Shown here: positions 2,031-13,133 of the stretch, piece by piece | Numbering within the stretch: the first letter of the stretch is position 1 | Layout: the number at the start of each line of letters is the position of its first letter | IMG/VR virus record: IMGVR_UViG_3300033616_000003 | Source of the DNA: a virus | Strand: one strand, 5' to 3' | Length of the DNA: 35,824 nt | Made by a program: the position numbers and the translations under genes | Notes under the pieces: generated by a model | What the model saw: the letters and a program-made list of their open reading frames with translations, nothing else | The model's database searches: none | Told to the model about the DNA's origin: nothing

Positions 2031-2924
2031 TTACACTATAGCTGTAGCTTTTGTGTGAGCATAGATTCCAACAGTCTTATTATCTGGAATAAAGATGTCG
2101 TGATATACTCTAGACTGCATTAACCATCCATCTGTGCTCTGGTTAGTATCTGGGTCAAATACTTTAAGTTGTCTTTGCTTCACAATTGGAAGTACAGCTG
2201 CATCGTGCACTAACAGGAAGTTAAGTTCATAATCTGTTCCACCAGTAGTTGCAGAATATCCAAAAGTAGTACTACCATCGTTGAGTGTAATTCCAGTATA
2301 AAATCTACCTTGTGGGACTTTGACTACTGGGATATTATCATAAGTATCAAATGTTCTGTCACCAATATCCATTACATCTCTCTGGAATAAGTCAGAGTTG
2401 CGAACATCAGAATATATCTGTGGTGTCATGAATAGACGCATCCCTTCTTTGTTGACTTCATTATCCTCAAGTTCAACAATAGCAGCATCAATAGCTTCTA
2501 CTGCATTAGTTTTATCTAAATCAGCATTAACAGTTGTTCCTGCATTAGAAGCAATTTGAGCATATCTATAAGCGTCTAATTCCGGTACAACTTCCTGCTT
2601 GGAAAATTGACTGGCTGTAAATGTAAATACGCTGTCTAATGCTTGTAAATTATCTTGTCTATCAATTGTGAACTGAACACCTCTGTCTTGTGTCAATGTG
2701 TGAGTTTCCCAATTAAAGTTAACAGAACCTGTAGGATAACCTGTCGCTCTGTCATAGTCACCTAAACCATCTAATGCAATTTTAGGAAGCAATACTTCGC
2801 CTGCATTCTGCCCATTTCTAATTAATTCTTGTGGAATGCTCAATACGTCGGAAGTTAATCCTCTTTTGTAAACCTCATCTAAATAAGTTGTATATTTTTT
2901 TGCTAGTGCAATACTATTAGCCAT
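2031..2924 (-). CDS. major capsid protein
   Basis: 297-aa ORF directly after the scaffold gene, with RBS aaaggagaga upstream. Size and position are typical of HK97-fold capsid proteins in SPP1-like head modules. Confidence 0.75.
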   Translation of the reverse strand: MANSIALAKKYTTYLDEVYKRGLTSDVLSIPQELIRNGQNAGEVLLPKIALDGLGDYDRATGYPTGSVNFNWETHTLTQDRGVQFTIDRQDNLQALDSVFTFTASQFSKQEVVPELDAYRYAQIASNAGTTVNADLDKTNAVEAIDAAIVELEDNEVNKEGMRLFMTPQIYSDVRNSDLFQRDVMDIGDRTFDTYDNIPVVKVPQGRFYTGITLNDGSTTFGYSATTGGTDYELNFLLVHDAAVLPIVKQRQLKVFDPDTNQSTDGWLMQSRVYHDIFIPDNKTVGIYAHTKATAIV

Positions 2925-2951
2925 TTAAAATCTCTCCTTTATAATTTTTAA

Positions 2952-3533
2952 TTAAAATGTAAATTTATCAGCCATTTTTTTGGCCCAATCTTCGTTGCTG
3001 TCTTGTGATGTAGTTTCCTTTGAAGAATTGAAGTCACCTGCTGTTTTCCCACTAGATGCTTTTTCTTCGCCAAAGTAGAAACTCTTATTTTCTTTTGCGC
3101 CTGTTACCAACTCATCAACACCTTTGACTTCTTCACCATCAACTTCTAACTGTTCAATCTTATCTGACATAGCTTTTAGGAAGTCATCAAGCGCTTCTTT
3201 TCTGATACCTTCAGCAATTGCTTTAACTTTAACCTCTGATTTTTTAATGAATTCCTTATTCCTGTTTTCAAGTTGTTCTTTTTCTTCATTAAGCCGCTTT
3301 TTAATTTCTTCTGGATCATCCATATCTTCGATTTTATCCTGCAAATCTTTCAGCTGGTCATTAAGTTTATTTTTCTCATCAACCACCTCTTTAAATCTCC
3401 AATAAGGTATCATTTTTTGTTCATTTACTTCATCCTGTTGAGTTTTATCTTCCTTTTCTGTTTTATCGACTTCTTCAGCTGTCGCTTCCTCAACTTTTTC
3501 TTCTTGTTCTACTTTTCCTTTTTCATCAGCCAT
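2952..3533 (-). CDS. capsid scaffolding protein
   Basis: 193 aa, extremely E/K/D-rich with coiled-coil character. It sits between the gp7-like gene and the capsid gene. Confidence 0.7.
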   Translation of the reverse strand: MADEKGKVEQEEKVEEATAEEVDKTEKEDKTQQDEVNEQKMIPYWRFKEVVDEKNKLNDQLKDLQDKIEDMDDPEEIKKRLNEEKEQLENRNKEFIKKSEVKVKAIAEGIRKEALDDFLKAMSDKIEQLEVDGEEVKGVDELVTGAKENKSFYFGEEKASSGKTAGDFNSSKETTSQDSNEDWAKKMADKFTF

Positions 3534-3583
3534 TATAATTCCTCCTTAGTATTTTACATCTTTAACGCAGATGATACGTAATG

Positions 3584-4639
3584 TTATCTCGCAGTTTTTA
3601 TGCTTTCTCGCTCATATTTTCTATACATTCCGGTTTTTTCTGTATGCTCTCTAAGTTTACCTTGCCACTTACGTATATAATTTTTAGCCTTCTTAGCTTC
3701 ATCATCAGTCATTGCAGCAACCTCTCTGCGTTTCCATTTACGTACATTTCTTTCCATATAGCGTTGAGTTTGTCTTTCTTCATAATTATCTGTGCTATCA
3801 ACTGGCTCTGGTTTAGTAGTTAACCCTTCCACCCATAATGTAGTGTTGTGAGTGCAGTTGGCGTGCCAGAGCCCGTCTGCTTCTGCTTCACTAACAGAAG
3901 GATAATCTTCACTTCTGCCACTTATACTTAATATCCTACCTTCCCACGGGTCGCATATTGGACAGCTTTCGGCATGAGCTGATACAACTACCAAGTCTTC
4001 ACCATTTTGCTGAAATCTATTTAATGAGCCATCTATTCTTGCTCTAGCAGCTGTGGTCCTTGTTGCCATTTCCGCATAAGTTTTGAGATTCCAGCTTCTA
4101 CCTGATTTATCGACAAATCCGCTAACTCCTCTGTTAGCAAACTCGTTCAGTACTCTCTGTGCACCCTCAACTCTTGTTCCGCTGCCAGTTAGGACAGTGT
4201 TAACTCCTCTGCTGACAGCTTGTCTATACACATCATCAGCCTGTCTTATCATTCGTAAGTGTGTACCCTGCAAATTACCTTTGAGTGCTTTAGTATAATT
4301 AGCAACTGTAGCTTCATCAATCTTGCCAAAATCAGTTGTTATTTCATTAATATTATATACTTTTCGCAAATCAGCAATAGCATCTTTTGAACCTTGATTA
4401 TATAATTCCTGTATAATAGGCTGTAATTCTTTTTCTGTGTAATTGTCCAGTTTAGCTTTAATCTGCTTTTCAACACCACTCCTTAATGTTTGCAGTTCTC
4501 TCAACTTTCTAATTTCCCATTGTTCAATAGTTAGTGTTTTATCTTTCTTCAACCTGTTAGCAATCCGCTGAATAATATCTCTTTCAGCTTGAGCATATAC
4601 TCTACCAACTTTTAATGTTAAATCATCAATTTTAGCCAT
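3584..4639 (-). CDS. minor head protein, SPP1 gp7 / Mu F-like
   Basis: It follows the portal region. The C-terminal part carries ESCPICDPWEGRI...HANCTHN, typical of the Mu F/gp7 head morphogenesis family. Confidence 0.75.
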   Translation of the reverse strand: MAKIDDLTLKVGRVYAQAERDIIQRIANRLKKDKTLTIEQWEIRKLRELQTLRSGVEKQIKAKLDNYTEKELQPIIQELYNQGSKDAIADLRKVYNINEITTDFGKIDEATVANYTKALKGNLQGTHLRMIRQADDVYRQAVSRGVNTVLTGSGTRVEGAQRVLNEFANRGVSGFVDKSGRSWNLKTYAEMATRTTAARARIDGSLNRFQQNGEDLVVVSAHAESCPICDPWEGRILSISGRSEDYPSVSEAEADGLWHANCTHNTTLWVEGLTTKPEPVDSTDNYEERQTQRYMERNVRKWKRREVAAMTDDEAKKAKNYIRKWQGKLREHTEKTGMYRKYERESIKTAR

Positions 4640-4919: not shown

Positions 4920-6422
4920 CTAAACTAAATCGTCTGGCTCATTAACTGCCATTCCATTTTCCTGCATTATGCGATTAACTTCATTTTCAACTTGTTTTTC
5001 ATTCCATTCTGGATGTAGTTGTCTAACAGTAGTGTCAATACTCATTGCTTTAGCTTGCACAAGCTTGTTAATGCTGTCAGCTTTCTGCATTGGATCAGTT
5101 TGCACACTATCTTGAATGTTAACCTGAACCTTATAATCAGCATTGTTGCTACCAAAAGCGTAATTGTCAACTTGCAGCATCCAGTAAAACATATCCTCTA
5201 ATGTAGAAGTCCAATATTTAGCTTTTTTAGCAGAAGTCTTAAATGATTTACTCTGCTGCTGTTTAATTTCAGTTGCTGTTGCATTGCTTGTGCTATCACC
5301 TAAGCCAAAACTAGCTGGTGAATATCCTGCACCACTATATGCCTGTTTCATCAACTCTTTTGCTGTGTCATAATGTTGCTGTGCTCTAATATCAAACTGC
5401 ACATTGTCAATAGAGTTATTTTCTTCTCCTGCTGGTCCTTGATTAAGTGCTACAAATACTTCCTTGTCCATATCATGATATAAGTTGCCATTGTTATCAG
5501 TTTCCAGCATATATTCTGGCACAATAATTCTTCCTCTTGCTATGCGTAAATCTCTCACCCAATTAGTGTAAGTTTCATCAATAGCATCCATTAATCCAAT
5601 TATACCCTGCAAATCACTCTCACCTAATGCAGAACCTCTCCACAACCTGTTAGGCTTCTTATTAGGCACATACCAAGCTAATAGGCTGTCTAGTCCATGC
5701 TCAATAACTTCTTCCATTCCTGCTGTATCTGGATGTTGCTCAAGTGGAATCTTAGTACCTAACTTTGTCATTGTGCCTTTGTATAGCTCATTAAGTATTA
5801 CACCTTTGCCGTTATCATCTTTTGTTCTAGTTTCAACTAAGCGATAATATACATTGTTGTCGGGATGATCAATAACTTTGAAGAATTTAACACTCTGAAG
5901 AAATCCCCACTTAAACTCCCACATTGCATTGTCTGGCTGTACCATTATTGGAATAGGAAAGTCTTTTACATCAGCATCCCAGTCTAGCTTAACAAATACA
6001 CCGCCCATTGCTGAGGTAGTTTCTGCACCTTCTAATAACCTACTATACACATCACCTTCTTCAATGATAATGTTAAGCCTATCTTGAGCATCCGTTGCAT
6101 CACTTGCTGCTGTTTCCTCGTGTGCTTCTGGTATCTTAACATCTGGCATTTCTGAAAATAAGAAGTCTGCTGATGTTGAAGCAATATCGCCTGCTATCGG
6201 CACATGTAACATTGTTGACCTATCGTTGTGAATATCCTTCTCCCAGAACAACCCCTGCTTTTCTAAGTTGTAATCATTAACTGTATACTGCTGATAAGTG
6301 TCAACTCCTAAGTAGTAGTTTAATAATTCTTCAGAAGAACCACTCCACCACGCAGCATATTCTCCGTATTTTTCATGATACTTAAAATATTTTTTATTCC
6401 ATTGTTGCAAATGTTTCACCAC
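4920..6422 (-). CDS. portal protein
   Basis: 500-aa ORF immediately downstream of the large terminase. Size and order are canonical for an SPP1 gp6-like portal. Confidence 0.8.
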   Translation of the reverse strand: MVKHLQQWNKKYFKYHEKYGEYAAWWSGSSEELLNYYLGVDTYQQYTVNDYNLEKQGLFWEKDIHNDRSTMLHVPIAGDIASTSADFLFSEMPDVKIPEAHEETAASDATDAQDRLNIIIEEGDVYSRLLEGAETTSAMGGVFVKLDWDADVKDFPIPIMVQPDNAMWEFKWGFLQSVKFFKVIDHPDNNVYYRLVETRTKDDNGKGVILNELYKGTMTKLGTKIPLEQHPDTAGMEEVIEHGLDSLLAWYVPNKKPNRLWRGSALGESDLQGIIGLMDAIDETYTNWVRDLRIARGRIIVPEYMLETDNNGNLYHDMDKEVFVALNQGPAGEENNSIDNVQFDIRAQQHYDTAKELMKQAYSGAGYSPASFGLGDSTSNATATEIKQQQSKSFKTSAKKAKYWTSTLEDMFYWMLQVDNYAFGSNNADYKVQVNIQDSVQTDPMQKADSINKLVQAKAMSIDTTVRQLHPEWNEKQVENEVNRIMQENGMAVNEPDDLV

Positions 6423-7890: not shown

Positions 7891-8404
7891 CGCCCTCCCA
7901 TATTTCCTCACTTCTACCTCTAATCGCATCAATGTAAACATCTACATCTACACTATCTGGAGCTTCATCATTCTCAACTTGATATTTCAACTTAAGTAAT
8001 TGAGTTTTCTTACCCTGCACTCTAGTTAAGGCCTCTTCAATATTAGAGGTATTTTCAGCCTCAACAGATTGATTAATCCTCTGCATCATCCTTCTTATTC
8101 TAATCTCAATCAACTTAATATCATCATCAATTAAATCTATAACTTCATGCTTAACTTTAGGTAATAATTGCTGTTCTTCATCTGTTAAAGTATCCATCCA
8201 TATAGTTTCATATTCACCTGTGGATACAGCGTTTTTATTCTTCTTCATATTCTCTGGCTTCGGACCAGTTGACTTGCCACCATGCAACTTACACCTACCT
8301 TTTCCAGCGTGAGACGTTCCCCAGCCTTTAGGCCTGCGGCAAGGTGTGCCCGCTCTAGTAGTAGCACCACAATGTTTATCTTTATCATAGACTTTGTTTT
8401 CCAT
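7880..8404 (-). CDS. terS: terminase small subunit
   Basis: The N-terminal basic Cys/His-rich motif CGATTRAGTPCRRPKGWGTSHAGKGRCKLHGGKSTGP is typical of one small-terminase family. RBS gaggtgg is present, and terL follows directly. Confidence 0.7.
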   Translation of the reverse strand: MENKVYDKDKHCGATTRAGTPCRRPKGWGTSHAGKGRCKLHGGKSTGPKPENMKKNKNAVSTGEYETIWMDTLTDEEQQLLPKVKHEVIDLIDDDIKLIEIRIRRMMQRINQSVEAENTSNIEEALTRVQGKKTQLLKLKYQVENDEAPDSVDVDVYIDAIRGRSEEIWEGDED

Positions 8405-8419
8405 ATCACCACCTCAATT

Positions 8420-8581
8420 CTAAACTTTTATTAAATAAATTATATCTAATTCAGCAACATAACTATCTATTTTGTATTTGCAATCTTCTTTTAAACTATT
8501 AAATCCCCCATCATTTCTAATAAAAATTTGGCTGCTAGAAGGTTTTTCTTTTAAAATTTGCTCTCTAGTATATTTTTTCAT
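8420..8581 (-). CDS. small hypothetical protein (53 aa, not in the ORF track)
   Basis: My translation is MKKYTREQILKEKPSSSQIFIRNDGGFNSLKEDCKYKIDSYVAELDIIYLIKV. It has an ATGA overlap with the upstream ORF. Confidence 0.45.
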   Translation of the reverse strand: MKKYTREQILKEKPSSSQIFIRNDGGFNSLKEDCKYKIDSYVAELDIIYLIKV

Positions 8582-8736
8582 TTTATATCATGCCTATCCT
8601 TTAGTGCTTCAACATATGTTGAGATTTCTTTTAATAGTTTCTTTTCTTGCTTGATATCTTTATCGGAAGCACCATCTCTTGTAATATAATATTGCAAAGC
8701 GTGTTTAATTATCTGTTGTTCAGTATAGTTTGTCAT
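8578..8736 (-). CDS. small hypothetical protein (52 aa, not in the ORF track)
   Basis: My translation is MTNYTEQQIIKHALQYYITRDGASDKDIKQEKKLLKEISTYVEALKDRHDIK. RBS gaggtgg lies 7 nt upstream. Confidence 0.5.
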   Translation of the reverse strand: MTNYTEQQIIKHALQYYITRDGASDKDIKQEKKLLKEISTYVEALKDRHDIK

Positions 8737-8798
8737 CTCAATCCACCTCACTATAATGTGCCAACCCTAAATCAACTATCTGATGCTTGATTATATCG

Positions 8799-9677
8799 TT
8801 ATGATAAATCTGCATAATAATCAATTTCTTCCATCTGATTATCAACTTTACAATTAGCAATCCACTTTTCCATATTCTCAAATTGGAATAAATACATAAT
8901 TGTAGCTTTAAAGTTACCATCAACCTGTCCTGTCATAAAATTATTAGCTGCAATATTATCAATAGCTTGCTTAATCTCATCAACCGAAAAGTCGTCTAGC
9001 ATATCTCTAATTTTACCTCTACGCTTAGATGTCAACTTTCTAGGTTGGAAGTAGTCTTCCACAGCTAACTTGTAATATTCCCATATGTCGAATACCACTT
9101 TATTAGCTTGTTTATTGAAAGCCCCATCATCACCATTAGGTTTATTCTCTGTAGTAGTCTCTGTAGTACTCTCTGTAATAGGATAATCTTGCTTTTCCTT
9201 ATCTCTTAGTAATTCATCATTTCCCTTACTCTTAGTAATTGTACTTTTCCCAATTAGGTCTGGATGGTAAACTTTTAATAAATCATAATTTAATTTTTCC
9301 CAGTTGATAAACCAATAAGTAACCCTATCGCTATCTGTATAATATATAACATAAGCATCTTCTTCATTCTCAATTTTATTCTTATTCTTACCTCTTTTAT
9401 AACCAATCTTTTTAATAGCTGTATTAAATTCACTTCTACTAAATCCTAATTCTTCTAACCAGCTGTCTCCCTCTTTATACCAATCGTGTGTACAAGGTGC
9501 AATAAATTTGAAAAACTTACCATCTTTTTTGATGTCCCAATACATCGCTTGTTGCAGTAAAATTGTTGCTGTAACCTTACCAGTTATTTTATTTAACTTT
9601 TTACGATAAGGTATAGTTTCTTTATCCTCTGACATTGTCATCGCTATTCCATTTGGTCGACCATAACCTGTACTCAT
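8799..9677 (-). CDS. replication initiator/organizer-like protein (wHTH-like N-domain plus conserved phage C-terminal domain); paralog-like to 20053..20847
   Basis: The N-terminal ILLQQAMYWD...EELGFSRSEFNTAIKKIG looks wHTH-like. The C-terminal KRRGKIRDMLDDFSVDEIKQAIDNIAANNFMTG resembles the conserved phage C-terminus seen in DnaD-type replication proteins. It ends QMEEIDYYADLS. RBS acggagg is present. Confidence 0.5.
   Translation of the reverse strand: MSTGYGRPNGIAMTMSEDKETIPYRKKLNKITGKVTATILLQQAMYWDIKKDGKFFKFIAPCTHDWYKEGDSWLEELGFSRSEFNTAIKKIGYKRGKNKNKIENEEDAYVIYYTDSDRVTYWFINWEKLNYDLLKVYHPDLIGKSTITKSKGNDELLRDKEKQDYPITESTTETTTENKPNGDDGAFNKQANKVVFDIWEYYKLAVEDYFQPRKLTSKRRGKIRDMLDDFSVDEIKQAIDNIAANNFMTGQVDGNFKATIMYLFQFENMEKWIANCKVDNQMEEIDYYADLS
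9146..9181. repeat. three tandem 12-bp repeats (tctctgtagtag / tctctgtagtac / tctctgtaatag) inside gene 8799..9677
   Basis: Read directly. On the coding strand they encode the TESTTETTTE linker. Confidence 0.85.
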
Positions 9678-9710
9678 TTAATTTAATACCTCCGTTTAGT
9701 ATTTATCCGT

Positions 9711-9785
9711 AAAAAAATAATAGTGAGCAATCCATTACGGATTATGGAGTTTCGATGCTGATAGCTAGTCAACATCTAGCTCACT
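9711..9785 (-). terminator. putative leader terminator/attenuator: AGUGAGC...GCUCACU stem followed by AUUAUUUUUUU
   Basis: On the minus-strand transcript a 7-bp stem (9779-9785 with 9722-9728) is followed by a U-run (9711-9721). Competing pairings exist (see findings). Confidence 0.35.
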
Positions 9786-9808
9786 TTAAACTTTATTCCT
9801 ACACTATA

Positions 9809-9837
9809 ATTATACCACCCAACCAACAATAAGTCAA
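9809..9837 (-). promoter_or_regulatory. sigma-A/sigma-70-type promoter, TTGACT-17-TATAAT
   Basis: The -35 is at 9832-9837 and the -10 at 9809-9814 on the minus strand. Spacing was counted by hand. Confidence 0.6.
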
Positions 9838-9851
9838 GGGTATTTTGAAAT

Positions 9852-9926
9852 TGGCGGGAATAAAGAGAATTGAACTCTCATCTTTAGCTTGACAGGCTAA
9901 CGTCATCACCATTAGACCATATTCCC
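9852..9926 (-). tRNA. tRNA-Asp (anticodon GTC), CCA encoded
   Basis: Hand-folded cloverleaf. Acceptor GGGAATA/TATTCCC, anticodon stem TTAGC/GCTAA with loop CTGTCAA, T-arm GAGAG-TTCAATT-CTCTT, discriminator G plus CCA. Confidence 0.85.
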
Positions 9927-9930
9927 ATAT

Positions 9931-10008
9931 TGGTACCCCAGACAGGACTCGAACCTGCAATTTCCAGAGTGAAAATCTGGTGGCTTAACTCTTTTCGCCT
10001 ACTGGGGC
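9931..10008 (-). tRNA. tRNA-Glu (anticodon TTC), CCA encoded, atypical D-arm
   Basis: Acceptor GCCCCAG/CTGGGGT (G1:U72), anticodon stem CCAGA/TCTGG with loop TTTTCAC, T-arm GCAGG-TTCGAGT-CCTGT. The D-stem has only 3 bp, and its 12-nt loop lacks the usual GG. Confidence 0.75.
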
Positions 10009-10012
10009 AAAT

Positions 10013-10088
10013 TGGCAGTAAAGGTAGGACTCGAACCTACAACCTTCCGGGTAACAGCCGACTGCTCTACCATTTGAGCTACTCTACT
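10013..10088 (-). tRNA. tRNA-Asn (anticodon GTT), CCA encoded
   Basis: Acceptor AGTAGAG/CTTTACT, D-arm GCTC-AAATGGTA-GAGC, anticodon loop CTGTTAC, T-arm GTAGG-TTCGAGT-CCTAC. Confidence 0.85.
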
Positions 10089-10103
10089 ATAATTAACTTA
10101 ATA

Positions 10104-10446
10104 CTCCACTCATACCTAGCTTTATTCTTTAATTTTCGCTAAGCTACAACTATCATTTTAAGCCTCTTAACTTTCAGTATAAGTGGAAGATTAAATTAAT
10201 TTAGTAGCTGATAGTTTTACTTCCGTCAGCTGCAGAAGATAACGGATAAAGACACCCGGCAGATACTGAGTGCTACCTTTTATCCTCCCACTTAATCTAT
10301 TAAGCAATACCATCTGCCATAGCATTGCACAAGTGGTAACATATATATTATAAGAGGGAAGCCTTCTTAGAAGGCTATATGGTCCCGCGTGAGATAGCTG
10401 CCCTCTTAACGACGTTAATAACCTCCGCATATACTAATATATGCAG
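10104..10446 (-). ncRNA. candidate structured non-coding RNA, unclassified GC-rich intergenic island next to the tRNA cluster
   Basis: No credible ORF. About 43 percent G+C by hand count over 10221-10420, against an AT-rich background. Multiple nested helices form on the minus-strand transcript (details in findings). Confidence 0.5.
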
Positions 10447-10452
10447 ATGATC

Positions 10453-10617
10453 TTACATTTTAAAATGACTCTCTCTTTTAGTTTCAGCAAAAATTTCTAA
10501 ACTTTCATCACTTTTTCTACTATGTTCCATTATACAAAGTATGCACAAATTATAATCTAACATCTTATCTGTTGCACCTTCGCTGGCGAATTCAGCCCCA
10601 CATCGTTGGCATTTCAT
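10453..10617 (-). CDS. small zinc-ribbon-like protein (54 aa, not in the ORF track)
   Basis: My translation is MKCQRCGAEFASEGATDKMLDYNLCILCIMEHSRKSDESLEIFAETKRESHFKM, with CxxC...CxxC. It has an ATGA overlap with the upstream gene. Confidence 0.5.
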   Translation of the reverse strand: MKCQRCGAEFASEGATDKMLDYNLCILCIMEHSRKSDESLEIFAETKRESHFKM

Positions 10618-11138
10618 CTAATTCCCAACTTCTTATCCAGCATTAACCGGTCCACTTCTTCCACTTCTATATCCTTATCTAACATTTCAGCATATAGTAT
10701 CTCATCAGACTGCCCACTGCTTAAAAAGCCATCATATTGGATAAATACGCAGGTGTCTGCCCTCTCTATCATCTGATAACACTCATACATTATAGCATCT
10801 CTCATATCGTCTGTATCGAAGTATGAGAAGCTGTGTAAAGGTGATAGGATTAATGCTTCTGGATTAACTTCTCTAATCTCTTTAGCTATAAAATCAACTC
10901 TCAACTTATTAATTTTTGGATCATCAGCAAAAGGATGAGATAAGAAAATTAATTCATAACCTCTCATTTCTTTTTTAATGTCATCATAATCTATCATTTC
11001 CAATATTTTATCATTATTAATATCTAAATCATCGTTTTGATGAATATCATCTAGGTTTTTCATTTTCCTTGATTGTAACTCTGGCATTTCTAAAATTTCT
11101 TCTACTTTTAAACATTCTCCATTGCAATGGTCACACAT
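10614..11138 (-). CDS. nucleoside 2-deoxyribosyltransferase-like / DUF4406-like protein with an N-terminal Cys cluster
   Basis: The core has ELIFLSHPF ... ILSPLH ... CVFIQYDGFLSSGQSDEILYAE. This resembles the Rossmann-like NDT/DUF4406 pattern (SxG..E..yA). A 60-aa N-terminal extension begins MCDHCNGEC. Confidence 0.45.
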   Translation of the reverse strand: MCDHCNGECLKVEEILEMPELQSRKMKNLDDIHQNDDLDINNDKILEMIDYDDIKKEMRGYELIFLSHPFADDPKINKLRVDFIAKEIREVNPEALILSPLHSFSYFDTDDMRDAIMYECYQMIERADTCVFIQYDGFLSSGQSDEILYAEMLDKDIEVEEVDRLMLDKKLGIR

Positions 11139-11149
11139 TTCATCATCCC

Positions 11150-12178
11150 CTAATAGTTTTCTACCTTGTATTCTCTACTTAAGTTATAATCATATTTGCC
11201 ATTTTTGAAGTTAACTATACCATAACCATACTCCCACTTGTTACCTTTAGCATCTTTGTTGCGGAATTCTACATCCTTATCTTCTATACAACCAAACTCA
11301 TAGCCGTATCTGCCAAATGCTTCAGCATTGCCTAACCTGTGAGTGTGCCCTATACCAACAGCTTCAAAGTTAGCAAACTCTTTCTCGTGCCTGCGTTTGA
11401 TAAGATGCTTAATGACATTCTCAACTGATCGCATAGTTACTTTTGAGTATCTGGAAGGGTGCGCAAATACAAAATCACCAAGCTGCATAAACCAATGATT
11501 AACATATTCCACATTGTCAAAATATCTAACTATTTCGGTAAGTGGTTTGTGCTTCTCCATTAAGAATCCGTTAAATCCAGTTACAATTTTATTCTTAAAG
11601 TATCTAGTCAATCTGTATTCGTGATTTCCGTTAATGATGTAAACTTTCTCAAATATACTTGCCAACTTATTCATTATCTTATAACCCATTTTGTATTCAT
11701 CGCTAACATCTATATTTTTGGATTGCCCGTAGAATGAAATGGAATCATAATCTAAATAATCACCAGCAATAACTAATATATCTGCATCTTGATGCTGGTG
11801 AATAATAGCTTCCAACACATTAATATTAGCTTTAGGAATGTGCAAATCATTAATAACCAACACTTTAACTTCTTTGTTGCCATAATCTTTTTCAAATTGT
11901 TTCATAACCTGCTTAATATGTTCTTTTTCTTCTTTATATACAGAGTCTAAATCCTCATCATATAAGTCTGCAAATATACCCTTGCCTCGCTTATTAGGAA
12001 TATAATCTATAATAGGACTTCTTCTTATTCTATTTCTGGTAGAGTCTAATGTAAACTCTTTAACTTCTCCGTATTCTTCGTTTAAAACTTCATTAATTGC
12101 TGAATAATTGTTGCCATACTTGTCATATAAATCAGCTAATTTCTTTTCTACCTTAGGATGGTCATCCCATCTAAACAT
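11150..12178 (-). CDS. calcineurin-like metallophosphoesterase
   Basis: Ordered motifs VINDLHIP, AGDYLDYD, GNHE and GHTH match the binuclear metallophosphoesterase signature. About 100 aa of N-terminal extension precede them. Confidence 0.7.
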   Translation of the reverse strand: MFRWDDHPKVEKKLADLYDKYGNNYSAINEVLNEEYGEVKEFTLDSTRNRIRRSPIIDYIPNKRGKGIFADLYDEDLDSVYKEEKEHIKQVMKQFEKDYGNKEVKVLVINDLHIPKANINVLEAIIHQHQDADILVIAGDYLDYDSISFYGQSKNIDVSDEYKMGYKIMNKLASIFEKVYIINGNHEYRLTRYFKNKIVTGFNGFLMEKHKPLTEIVRYFDNVEYVNHWFMQLGDFVFAHPSRYSKVTMRSVENVIKHLIKRRHEKEFANFEAVGIGHTHRLGNAEAFGRYGYEFGCIEDKDVEFRNKDAKGNKWEYGYGIVNFKNGKYDYNLSREYKVENY

Positions 12179-12191
12179 ATATTACCCCTCT

Positions 12192-12401
12192 CTAAATTAT
12201 GTCTTTCCAAAAATAAATTAATCCGCCAATTATAATATATAACCAACTTATTAAAGTGTTAATTATTGCCAAAGGAATTGCCGATTTAGGCATTTGGTAA
12301 TCCCTAACACTATTTTTAGCATCTTTATAATGTAAACTAAAAAGTATAACATTATGAATAACACCTAACAAATAAACAAAAATTAAAATGTTAATTAACA
12401 T
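12192..12401 (-). CDS. small membrane protein (two predicted TM helices)
   Basis: It has hydrophobic stretches LINILIFVYLLGVI and IPLAIINTLISWLYIIIGGLIYF. Confidence 0.5.
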   Translation of the reverse strand: MLINILIFVYLLGVIHNVILFSLHYKDAKNSVRDYQMPKSAIPLAIINTLISWLYIIIGGLIYFWKDII

Positions 12402-12414
12402 ATATTACCCCTCT

Positions 12415-12594
12415 CTATAAAACTGTGCCTATAATCTGCCAACTGTCATTAATTTTTGTATAAATGTGAATTGCACCATAACTTTCAACTTGTTCAGTTT
12501 TAAGCCAACCATTGTAATACCCTTGTAAGTGCTCTGGAAAGTTTCTTTTAATATATTGAATAACATTATAATCATCTCGCTGATAATCATACAT
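12415..12594 (-). CDS. small hypothetical protein (59 aa, not in the ORF track)
   Basis: My translation is MYDYQRDDYNVIQYIKRNFPEHLQGYYNGWLKTEQVESYGAIHIYTKINDSWQIIGTVL. RBS aaggag lies 8 nt upstream. Confidence 0.55.
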   Translation of the reverse strand: MYDYQRDDYNVIQYIKRNFPEHLQGYYNGWLKTEQVESYGAIHIYTKINDSWQIIGTVL

Positions 12595-12622
12595 ATTGTA
12601 GACTCCTTAAAGTGGTATTATT

Positions 12623-12674
12623 AGCAGGACAGCCAATTTGTAAAGATTTACTCTTATCAATTTGCCGCCCTGCT
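12623..12674 (-). promoter_or_regulatory. long imperfect hairpin in the 5' leader of the 12594 operon
   Basis: The arms AGCAGGGCGGCAAATTG and CAAATTGGCTGTCCTGCT pair over about 17 positions, with G:U pairs and one mismatch, around a 17-nt loop. The hairpin lies between the promoter and the RBS. Confidence 0.5.
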
Positions 12675-12725
12675 GAAAGGGGGAATAAAATGAAAAGTTT
12701 ACATAACTATTCACTCTATATCTTT

Positions 12726-12754
12726 ATTATACACCATAAACCCCAAATTATCAA
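12726..12754 (-). promoter_or_regulatory. sigma-A-type promoter, TTGATA-17-TATAAT
   Basis: The -35 is at 12749-12754 and the -10 at 12726-12731 on the minus strand. Spacing was counted by hand. Confidence 0.6.
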
Positions 12755-12758
12755 GCTA

Positions 12759-12780
12759 AAACTGCAATCAAACTGCAATC
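12759..12780. repeat. perfect tandem duplication of the 11-mer aaactgcaatc, immediately upstream of the -35
   Basis: Read directly. It overlaps the stop codon of the ArpU-like gene. I saw this 11-mer nowhere else in the window. Confidence 0.85.
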
Positions 12781-13133
12781 ATTTCAAATTTATTAATTAA
12801 TTTTTCATAAGCATCTAATTTAATCGTAAAATAGCTTCTCTCTGATTTTTCCCATTCCTCCATTTCGATTATTTCATTATCTGGTACACTACCTGGTGTC
12901 CACTTACGCAAATAAGGCTCTAATTCCAGATTATACAGCTGTGTAATAATAAATAACTCATCATCATTTAAGGTTATTAACATTTTATCAACAGTATCCA
13001 CAAAGTTTTTCTTCTGCTGCAAGTTGACTTCTTTATCTTTGAAAATATCATCAAACTTTTCATAAATTGTAATGTAATCACAATAGTTAATATATTGCTT
13101 TAATACTTTATCGACCAATTTCTTATCCATCAT
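12768..13133 (-). CDS. ArpU/RinA-like (sigma region-4-like) transcriptional regulator
   Basis: LNDDELFIITQLYNLE ... SERSYFTIKLDAYEKLINKF resembles the HTH of ArpU/RinA late-gene activators. I set the start at ATG 13133, which has an ATGA overlap with the upstream gene. Confidence 0.45.
   Translation of the reverse strand: MMDKKLVDKVLKQYINYCDYITIYEKFDDIFKDKEVNLQQKKNFVDTVDKMLITLNDDELFIITQLYNLELEPYLRKWTPGSVPDNEIIEMEEWEKSERSYFTIKLDAYEKLINKFEMIAV

Follow-up and report, generated by a model that had tools for sequence, protein, structure and literature searches.

What occupies the 364 nt that separate tRNA-Asn from the stop codon (10453) of a 54-amino acid zinc-ribbon open reading frame (ORF) in IMG/VR record IMGVR_UViG_3300033616_000003? 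The window, by which we mean the whole 35,824-nt stretch analysed, is a segment of a siphovirus-like phage genome with all genes on the minus strand, and an initial annotation had proposed one unclassified, GC-rich structured RNA in this interval. Comparison with related loci indicates that three parts make up the island: module A is a conserved hairpin, module B a new and rare RNA family and module C a spacer that resembles a processing stalk. The proposal of an unclassified structured RNA is in essence correct: the structure is supported, but as three independently assorting modules and not as one RNA.

Alignments to related loci show where these modules begin and end. We sought relatives in IMG/VR through two flanking proteins, in JGI metagenomes with an 18-base pattern and in ENA/Logan assemblies through homologues of a 174-amino acid neighbouring protein. 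The collection of homologues that the initial annotation had recommended thus yielded metagenomic relatives whose alignment splits the interval: BLAST and nhmmer alignments break cleanly at q98/99 and q248/249, delimiting segments A (10355-10452), B (10205-10354) and C (10089-10204). Because the alignments break at these two points and relatives carry varied combinations (A+B, B alone, B+C and A+B′+C, where B′ is an unrelated cassette), we regard the interval as three assorting units. Related loci, labelled L with a number, are built as follows:

L004: B, tRNA-Thr
L005: A, B, tRNA-Thr, C, tRNA-Asn
L002 and L009: B, C, tRNA-Asn
L008: A, B′, C, tRNA-Asn
L239: A, B′, tRNA-Thr, C
L244: A, B′, D, C, with no tRNA
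L189: A, B, E, tRNA-Pro, tRNA-Thr

Some close relatives lack module B and others have B′ in its place, module A also occurs in other contexts (L187, L193, L244), and L193 equals L005 minus tRNA-Thr, which is precisely excised between B and C. Four loci (L244, L203, L178 and L193) have modules without a downstream tRNA, a promoter or an ORF coming next instead.

Covariation supports a five-helix fold for module B. The alignment comprises 13 distinct copies, that is, three sequence types and recombinants among them, and gives the following model:

10206 to 10340, minus strand: module B, a 135-nt structured RNA with five helices and two candidate pseudoknots
10331-10336 with 10288-10293, minus strand: helix P1, CCACUU/AAGUGG
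10322-10328 with 10304-10310, minus strand: helix P2, up to 10 bp
10279-10285 with 10244-10250, minus strand: helix P3, GGAUAAA/UUUAUCC
10268-10273 with 10252-10257, minus strand: helix P4
10233-10238 with 10220-10225, minus strand: helix P5
10312-10318 with 10258-10264, minus strand: PK1, a candidate loop-loop pseudoknot between GGCAGAU (P2 loop) and AUCUGCC (P4 loop)
10226-10231 with 10206-10211, minus strand: PK2, a candidate H-type pseudoknot between AGCUGA (P5 loop) and UCAGCU, with the A-rich linker UAAAACUA

Standard pairs fill 96.3% of cells in this model, against 37–51% when the 3′ partners are slid by 1–3 columns, and the observed pairing values were reached by 0–1 of 500 shuffles. 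Eight pairs change on both sides (four in P2, two in P3 and one each in P1 and P5), and 4/5 helices have compensatory changes. Direct reading of the types agrees with these counts: P1 in L005 is CCACAA/UUGUGG in place of CCACUU/AAGUGG, a second compensatory pair, and P3, which is GAAUGGGGG/CCUCCAUUC in L002 and GAAUG(A)GAGAG/UUCUCCAUUC in L005, differs in sequence and length across the three types yet is always paired. A covariance model of module B (R1) scores 129–167 bits on all copies. The covariation named in advance as a test of the drawn helices is thus present in modules B (8 pairs) and C (7 pairs, see below) but almost absent from module A.

The two candidate pseudoknots are conserved. 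The initial annotation had pointed to GGCAG and CUGCC loops that might touch; the complementarity is real and longer than drawn, at 7 nt, although covariation leaves the contact unproven. Six of its seven pairs are invariant and one passes from A-U to G-U, the loops remaining constant while the stems vary, and L005 extends the complementarity to 9 nt (GGCAGGUAA/UUAUCUGCC). PK2 is paired in 93.6% of cells, with the L002 type in a different register; it pairs all but one residue of the P5 loop, and P5 and PK2 abut directly. The P5/PK2 element is common to B and B′.

Module B appears to be a new, rare RNA family outside any in Rfam. We searched Rfam 15 in three modes. At the gathering threshold only the 3 tRNAs were found; at E ≤ 10 on 1 kb the best non-tRNA matches scored 16–21 bits against family thresholds of 45–93; and module B alone, under the laxest filters, gave a best match of 9.8 bits. 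The families without a match include GOLLD, ROOL, raiA, riboswitches, small ribozymes, tmRNA, RNase P and 6S, so that the Rfam search advised at the outset returned no described family and only non-tRNA matches far below threshold. Module B is known from 13 distinct metagenomic contigs of a single uncultured siphovirus clade, itself tiny (25 protein clusters for the 174-amino acid neighbour). A pattern specific to module B gave chance matches only, both in one genome each of 185,579 species and, outside the clade, in metagenomes (e.g., pgk genes). A looser pattern of the loop-loop motif retrieved, among the matches listed, clade members and chance matches, and a P5 pattern mostly Walker-A-type coding sequence. 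Model R1 found no distant homologues in 263 kb of related loci and elsewhere just the shared P5 element, while blastn of the interval and of 8000–13000 against 50,697 phage records matched tRNAs only. The literature on an RNA of this kind offered analogies only.

The close packing of modules and tRNAs invites an explanation in which the modules are purely cis-acting leaders or spacers of tRNA precursors, serving folding, insulation or processing and without function once cut off. Module C ends 2 nt before tRNA-Asn in the window and 2–4 nt before it across loci, and it begins directly after the CCA of tRNA-Thr (L005, L010, L239) or, in the window, 4 nt after the PK2 strand of B. In five relatives, 4 nt separate the end of P5/PK2 from tRNA-Thr (this spacing of UCAGCU is seen in L004, L005, L010 and L239), and linkers of 2–5 nt join the units throughout, all on a single strand. 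We consider this explanation unlikely, if serious: it is weakened by the four loci with modules and no tRNA downstream, many tRNAs in the same arrays lie just 4 nt apart, and a 135-nt double-pseudoknot model with invariant loops exceeds the needs of a spacer.

Folding of the whole interval points to the minus-strand transcript. All helices of the initial drawing are present there, in six groups (10425-10446; 10401-10408 with 10351-10358; 10304-10328; 10279-10285 with 10244-10250; 10220-10238; and 10177-10186 with 10104-10113). The minimum free energy of 10089-10452 is −109.2 kcal/mol, compared with −86.4 ± 5.6 for shuffles (z = −4.07), and fold z-scores are stronger on the minus than on the plus strand in all modules (A, −2.3 and −1.2; B, −3.2 and −1.4; C, −4.65 and −2.6). 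Some elements of the drawing need revision. Its 10-bp long-range helix exists but is merely the core of a stalk of ~25 bp; the inner 7-bp hairpin AGCCUUC/GAAGGCU of module A forms in the window but is specific to it and lost in relatives; and P1 and the candidate pseudoknot AGCUGA/UCAGCU were missing.

The same strand asymmetry bears on whether the conserved feature is instead a DNA-level element, such as a replication origin, a packaging site or a recombination hotspot. The island does sit between the replication and packaging modules, and relatives show heavy mosaicism and have homing-endonuclease genes nearby. The structured strand, however, is the gene strand: helices are kept through frequent G-U pairs, which are A-C mismatches on the other strand, and single-base indels are compensated in both helix strands. 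We found no iterons or tandem repeats, only chance 10–15-mer repeats. All this leaves a DNA-level element with a very slim chance of being correct.

The initial view that no credible gene lies in the interval is borne out. Only two ORFs of at least 30 amino acids occur between the stop at 10453 and tRNA-Asn:

10191 to 10430, minus strand: spurious 79-amino acid ORF spanning modules A, B and C
9930 to 10142, plus strand: 70-amino acid ORF antisense to tRNA-Glu and tRNA-Asn, almost certainly spurious

The first has an open frame and an ATG start, as a real 79-amino acid protein would, but its homologues refute that idea so fully that we give it next to no credence. The reading phase of the window is broken by 1-nt indels in 7/12 other copies of module B; every frame contains stops in five of these (L002, L005, L009, L071, L193), while L178 and L189 are open in another phase alone. 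The variable columns are distributed 17/14/19 among the three codon positions, without codon periodicity, and the homologues hence lack the codon-like pattern that the initial annotation had thought worth checking. The ORF also crosses both module boundaries, which come apart in relatives, and has no Pfam match. ARAGORN detects no tRNA or tmRNA fold between 10089 and 10452.

Base composition separates the modules as well. The 43% G+C originally counted by hand over 10221-10420 proves exact (43.0%, against 33.7% for the whole window), a value that 4.9% of 200-nt windows reach. The description as G+C-rich suits modules A (44.9%) and B (43.0%) but fails for module C (10089-10205, 26.5%), and the full span 10104-10446 has 38.2%. 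ToxI antitoxins consist of tandem repeats of ~36 nt beside a toxin endoribonuclease gene; we rejected a ToxI-like type III antitoxin here, as 10089-10452 contains no tandem repeats and the genes beside it are those of a metallophosphoesterase, a deoxyribosyltransferase-like protein and a zinc-ribbon protein.

Module C, which fills the gap between B and tRNA-Asn in the window, has a different architecture:

10091 to 10201, minus strand: AU-rich stalk, interrupted and ~25 bp long (10176-10201 with 10091-10116), around ~59 nt that contain small hairpins

The window stalk has 12 + 13 bp and a single unpaired C. With RNAalifold, 10 variants yield a consensus of 31 pairs, 7 of which are changed on both sides, and in a hand-registered count over 6 variants the 12 pairs of the stalk core are never broken, pair 3 being A-U, G-U or G-C. 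Several stalk changes replace C-G by U-G and would leave a mismatch if the opposite strand were the one that folds. L005-type cores are shorter, two base pairs having gone from both strands, and the L002 stalk reads directly as 24 contiguous bp. RNase III needs about two helical turns. Module C offers the stretch of at least ~20 bp of largely uninterrupted double-stranded RNA that characterizes RNase III stalks, and cleavage there is predicted. We rejected the stalk as an intrinsic terminator, no U run following it. Modules B and C both use a CCACUU/(A or G)AGUGG helix, and an alternative 16-nt pairing, 81% complementary, can be drawn between 10279-10294 (the P1 3′ strand and P3 5′ strand of B) and 10180-10195 (the 5′ strand of the C stalk). 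We dismissed this pairing because it is not kept in L002 or L005.

Short motifs in module C raise the possibility that the modules are self-cleaving ribozymes and module C a diverged hammerhead. Relatives carry CUGACGAG and, 35 nt on, UUAACUGCUAGG; the window lacks both and has UUAAGAG and AAAGCUAGG in their places. A pattern of CUGACGAG, 20–50 nt and AACUGCUAGG retrieved ~16 distinct type I hammerheads, recognized by eye, from unrelated higher-G+C phages, and these share the motifs of the relatives at the same spacing. Rfam reported none of them at its gathering threshold or at E ≤ 5, so that its silence is weak evidence for motifs this short. There is also a precedent in theta ribozymes (minimal, hepatitis delta virus-like), which lie beside viral tRNAs and are proposed to act in transcript processing (10.1101/2023.06.13.544163). 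Module C resembles these theta and hammerhead ribozymes in its adjacency to tRNAs but lacks their catalytic cores and lies 5′ rather than 3′ of the tRNA. A hammerhead consists of CUGANGA and GAAA cores, three helices and a cleavable NUH site. We rejected module C as one: the window has neither core, and the relatives, though they have CUGACGAG, lack CGAAA and stems II and III; CUGACGAG lies there in a small hairpin that covaries and has a GACG loop (alignment columns 36–47). A model of 14 hammerhead cassettes (R2) scores 9–21 bits on the relatives, from the two anchor motifs of the search itself, and does not match module C of the window; module B matches no ribozyme family. A ribozyme identity for the modules is thus very doubtful, and a remote evolutionary link may exist between the clade's module C and the hammerhead cassettes.

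The hammerheads seen by eye are intergenic in phages of 40–49% G+C, and each is followed by an invariant AACUGCUAGGAG and, 6–9 nt later, a start codon. They occur in L209, L211, L212, L214–L216, L219, L222–L224, L226, L227, L229, L232, L235 and L236; examples are L214 6484-6550 and L227 762-848, 1341-1408, 1691-1757 and 2473-2540, the latter locus having at least four cassettes in 2 kb. Two of the hammerhead-bearing contigs also match the Betaproteobacteria-1 RNA (RF02932) clearly, namely L216 (3371-3489, plus strand, 100 bits) and L229 (10640-10745, minus strand, 79 bits).

Module A is the simplest of the three in outline, with two hairpins:

10425 to 10446, minus strand: predicted 9-bp hairpin just after the zinc-ribbon stop, followed by GCGGAGGUUAUUAAC; weakly supported
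10351 to 10408 (module to 10452), minus strand: rod hairpin closed by UAAGAGGG/CCCUCUUA (10401-10408 with 10351-10358)

The interior GCUAUCUCACGCGGGACC of the rod is highly conserved. Across 6 variants, 1 of 18 consensus pairs is changed on both sides and several pass from G-C to G-U. The 3′ flank of the leading hairpin is similar to P5, namely to its 3′ half together with the tail (CGGAGGUUAAAC), and in L243 and L010 hairpins with other stems precede the same GGAGG motif. Because it has no U tract, we rejected the leading hairpin as an intrinsic terminator; the terminator scan does not call it either.

We next consider how the island would be expressed. It sits where early genes give way to late ones, with the replication module on one side and the packaging module on the other, in a window whose proteins include portal, large and small terminase subunits, tail tape-measure protein, DnaB-like helicase and metallophosphoesterase. 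The following features border the RNA modules:

10453 to 10617, minus strand: zinc-ribbon ORF, 54 amino acids (CxxC...CxxC), the last protein gene before the RNA island
10013 to 10088, minus strand: tRNA-Asn(GUU), called by ARAGORN and Rfam, immediately downstream of the RNA modules
9931 to 10008, minus strand: tRNA-Glu(UUC), on the same strand as the RNA modules
9852 to 9926, minus strand: tRNA-Asp(GUC), on the same strand as the RNA modules
9809 to 9837, minus strand: strong sigma-70-type promoter (TTGACT, 17 nt, TG-n-TATAAT; 11/12 matches), which closes the island and is conserved in relatives

The promoter at 9837-9809, the only strong one found, would drive the next gene, which encodes a 292-amino acid, replication-initiator/DnaD-like protein, and the small terminase gene follows 1.4 kb downstream of the island. 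Upstream of the modules, we found no convincing sigma-70-type promoter in four loci, and independent transcription of the modules is therefore not supported. No terminator was found between the zinc-ribbon ORF and the tRNAs beyond a site internal to P3, at chance level (1 found, 0.8 expected).

This position also raises the question of a cis-regulatory leader (a riboswitch, antiterminator or translational operator) for the replication-initiator-like and packaging genes. In its favor are the location at the early/late boundary, with the small terminase gene 1.4 kb downstream, and a C variant in L193 that directly precedes an ORF and whose 5′ strand could pair with the start region; P5/PK2 also superficially resembles a preQ1-I pseudoknot with its A-rich tail. 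A preQ1-I riboswitch combines a 5-bp P1 and a short P2 with an A-rich tail and a loop whose unpaired C and U contact the ligand, and it controls a gene downstream. We rejected P5/PK2 as one: it has no RF00522 match, it is followed by module C or a tRNA and not by an ORF, and it lacks a preQ1 pocket because all but one residue of the P5 loop is paired in PK2. Nor do the modules have an expression platform, a called terminator, any riboswitch match or a ligand pocket, and in the window three tRNAs and a strong promoter of its own separate them from the next ORF. We therefore place little faith in a leader function.

The reading we favor, with somewhat better than even confidence, is that the interval is the noncoding tail of an early/replication operon, made up of structured-RNA cassettes and three tRNAs that are processed from it, with module B a trans-acting accessory RNA. 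Read-through from the upstream genes would produce the whole stretch as one precursor. Host RNA-processing enzymes would cut it, RNase P acting at the 5′ end of each tRNA, and the module C stalk, which closes the gap to tRNA-Asn, would probably serve as an RNase III-type double-stranded processing site that separates the units. Module B would thereby be freed as a compact, stable RNA of ~135 nt, its two long hairpin arms joined by the 7-bp loop-loop contact and its 3′ end tucked into an H-type pseudoknot whose A-rich strand may shield it from 3′ exonucleases; in relatives, PK2 ends 4 nt before the predicted RNase P cut at tRNA-Thr. Once released, it could bind a host or phage factor. We take B to be an accessory, trans-acting RNA because it is dispensable and is replaced by B′, which has the same 3′ pseudoknot.

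One variant goes further and, in our judgment, is a long shot: B and its interchangeable counterpart B′ would constitute a new class of small phage effector RNAs, forming RNA-only rings or cages or acting as a decoy against a host defence or RNA-processing factor, and the island would be a shufflable library beside counter-defence tRNAs. In such rings or cages, which have parallels in phi29 pRNA and ROOL/GOLLD, B molecules would pair with one another through the GGCAGAU/AUCUGCC loops and the palindromic CAGCUG loop.

Several points weigh against the operon-tail reading and its accessory RNA. The sequences are few: module B has 13 copies in three types plus recombinants, and because this diversity is small the shuffle controls overstate significance. 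The clade has no cultured relative, portal identity to any INPHARED phage being at most 37%. PK1 and PK2 are unproven by covariation because they are essentially invariant. In L178 (275-408) the 5′ half of P3 is of the window type and the 3′ half of the L002 type, so that the helix is broken; this copy may have arisen by recombination in nature or be an assembly chimera of strains that occur together. L006 and L007 keep just the 3′ half of module C, and the stalk is thus not always formable. Support for module A as an RNA structure is weak because a single pair changes on both sides and the inner hairpin is not kept. RNase III cleavage, 3′-end protection and the trans function of the modules are steps that we infer. 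On balance, the fold model for B is good and the cassette behavior of the island unusual, while the small number of sequences counts against the reading built on them.

Further cassettes and genes surround the modules in relatives. B′ takes the place of B in L008 (~795-950), L010 (~5870-6020), L239 (4866-5072) and L244 (4741-4969); GCGCGCGU/ACGCGCGU closes it, and at its end stands the P5/PK2 element that B also has. In L244 an inserted hairpin enlarges one of the B′ hairpin loops; L010, L239 and L244 have a second unit (ACCUGUGAUAAG...) in addition, and B′ has no Rfam match in L138 (the same contig as L008). Two more noncoding modules are D, closed by GGGGCUA/UAGCCCC (L244 ~4970-5090; L243 ~2920-3040), and E, CACCUUCUGAGUGGUG...CACCUUUGAGAUGGUG, which lies downstream of B and ahead of tRNA-Pro in L189 and L052. 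Right after tRNA-Asn in L243 (~3570-3660) come ~90 nt with an 8-bp terminal helix (GCCAGCAG/CUGCUGG) and then AACCA, a sequence that looks tRNA-like, though ARAGORN does not call it.

Protein genes neighboring the island encode a metallophosphoesterase, a deoxyribosyltransferase-like protein and the zinc-ribbon protein. The zinc-ribbon ORF (10453..10617) matches neither PHROG nor Pfam, and other small ORFs take its position in relatives. Two genes upstream of the tRNA/RNA island lies the calcineurin-like metallophosphoesterase (342 amino acids, 11150-12178, minus strand), for which a role in RNA end-healing near tRNA genes is conceivable; in relatives, endonuclease genes interrupt or border its gene. 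There, free-standing genes of homing-endonuclease type (GIY-YIG and T5orf172) surround that gene and the island, a few kb away:

L239: 1558-2496 and 3367-3996
L243: 815-1414 and 3846-4466
L244: 2085-2780 and 5664-6407

Their proximity fits a recombination hotspot. Among the ten window ORFs near the island, the only ones scanned, none has a homing-endonuclease PHROG match.

Known phage RNAs offer analogies to this locus. Phage T4 makes two small RNAs of unknown role, RNAC and RNAD, from its tRNA region (PMC3014915; PMC9697503), and these are the nearest functional analogues we can suggest. Both they and the window modules are small RNAs other than tRNAs that lie within a tRNA cluster of a phage, share its strand and have no ORF. 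RNAC and RNAD are made together with the tRNAs, whereas expression and stable accumulation of the window modules are predicted from sequence; T4 infects E. coli, whereas the window comes from an uncultured low-G+C siphovirus, and the likeness drawn here is one of gene location and description. ROOL and GOLLD also lie near phage tRNA islands, and the GOLLD linker sometimes embeds tRNAs (PMC12286853; PMC5737381), much as tRNA-Thr stands between B and C in relatives. The initial comparison with these pseudoknot-rich phage and prophage RNAs of unknown function (GOLLD, RF01998; ROOL, RF03087) is a fair analogy as far as association with tRNA islands goes, but does not extend to family membership. 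They are single molecules of 580–800 nt that form 8- to 14-mer cages, whereas the units here are 60–135 nt and assort independently, the locus has no Rfam match to them at E ≤ 10, and its distribution is narrow (13 contigs). By its small size, modular assortment and narrow distribution, the locus belongs to neither T4 RNAC/RNAD nor ROOL/GOLLD.

Two further systems resemble the proposed processing. RNase III stalks of the rRNA operon and the R sites of T7 early mRNA are, like module C, long interrupted helices that flank an insert and lie between precursor units; the outer half of module C is almost pure A-U, two relatives retain its 3′ half alone, and its cleavage is a prediction. In the eukaryotic MALAT1/mascRNA system, RNase P cuts at a downstream tRNA-like unit to form the 3′ end, which an A-rich triple helix protects. 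The 3′ end of B would differ in using an H-type pseudoknot, and in the window it is followed by module C and not by a tRNA.

Phage tRNA islands are increasingly viewed as loci of counter-defence and host takeover. To our knowledge, the non-tRNA RNAs within them (T4 RNAC/RNAD, ROOL and GOLLD) have had no assigned function for decades. This locus is a far smaller example of a tRNA-island RNA, with a 135-nt model of five helices and two pseudoknots, and module B is more tractable because it is much smaller. Nature also supplies variants, among phages that are otherwise nearly identical, in which B is present, absent or replaced, and the locus has built-in, predicted processing signals. If the cassette picture is true, some phages would carry exchangeable noncoding-RNA modules much as they carry exchangeable protein moron genes, and a host or phage factor that co-varies with B versus B′ would provide a comparative handle on the role of the RNA.

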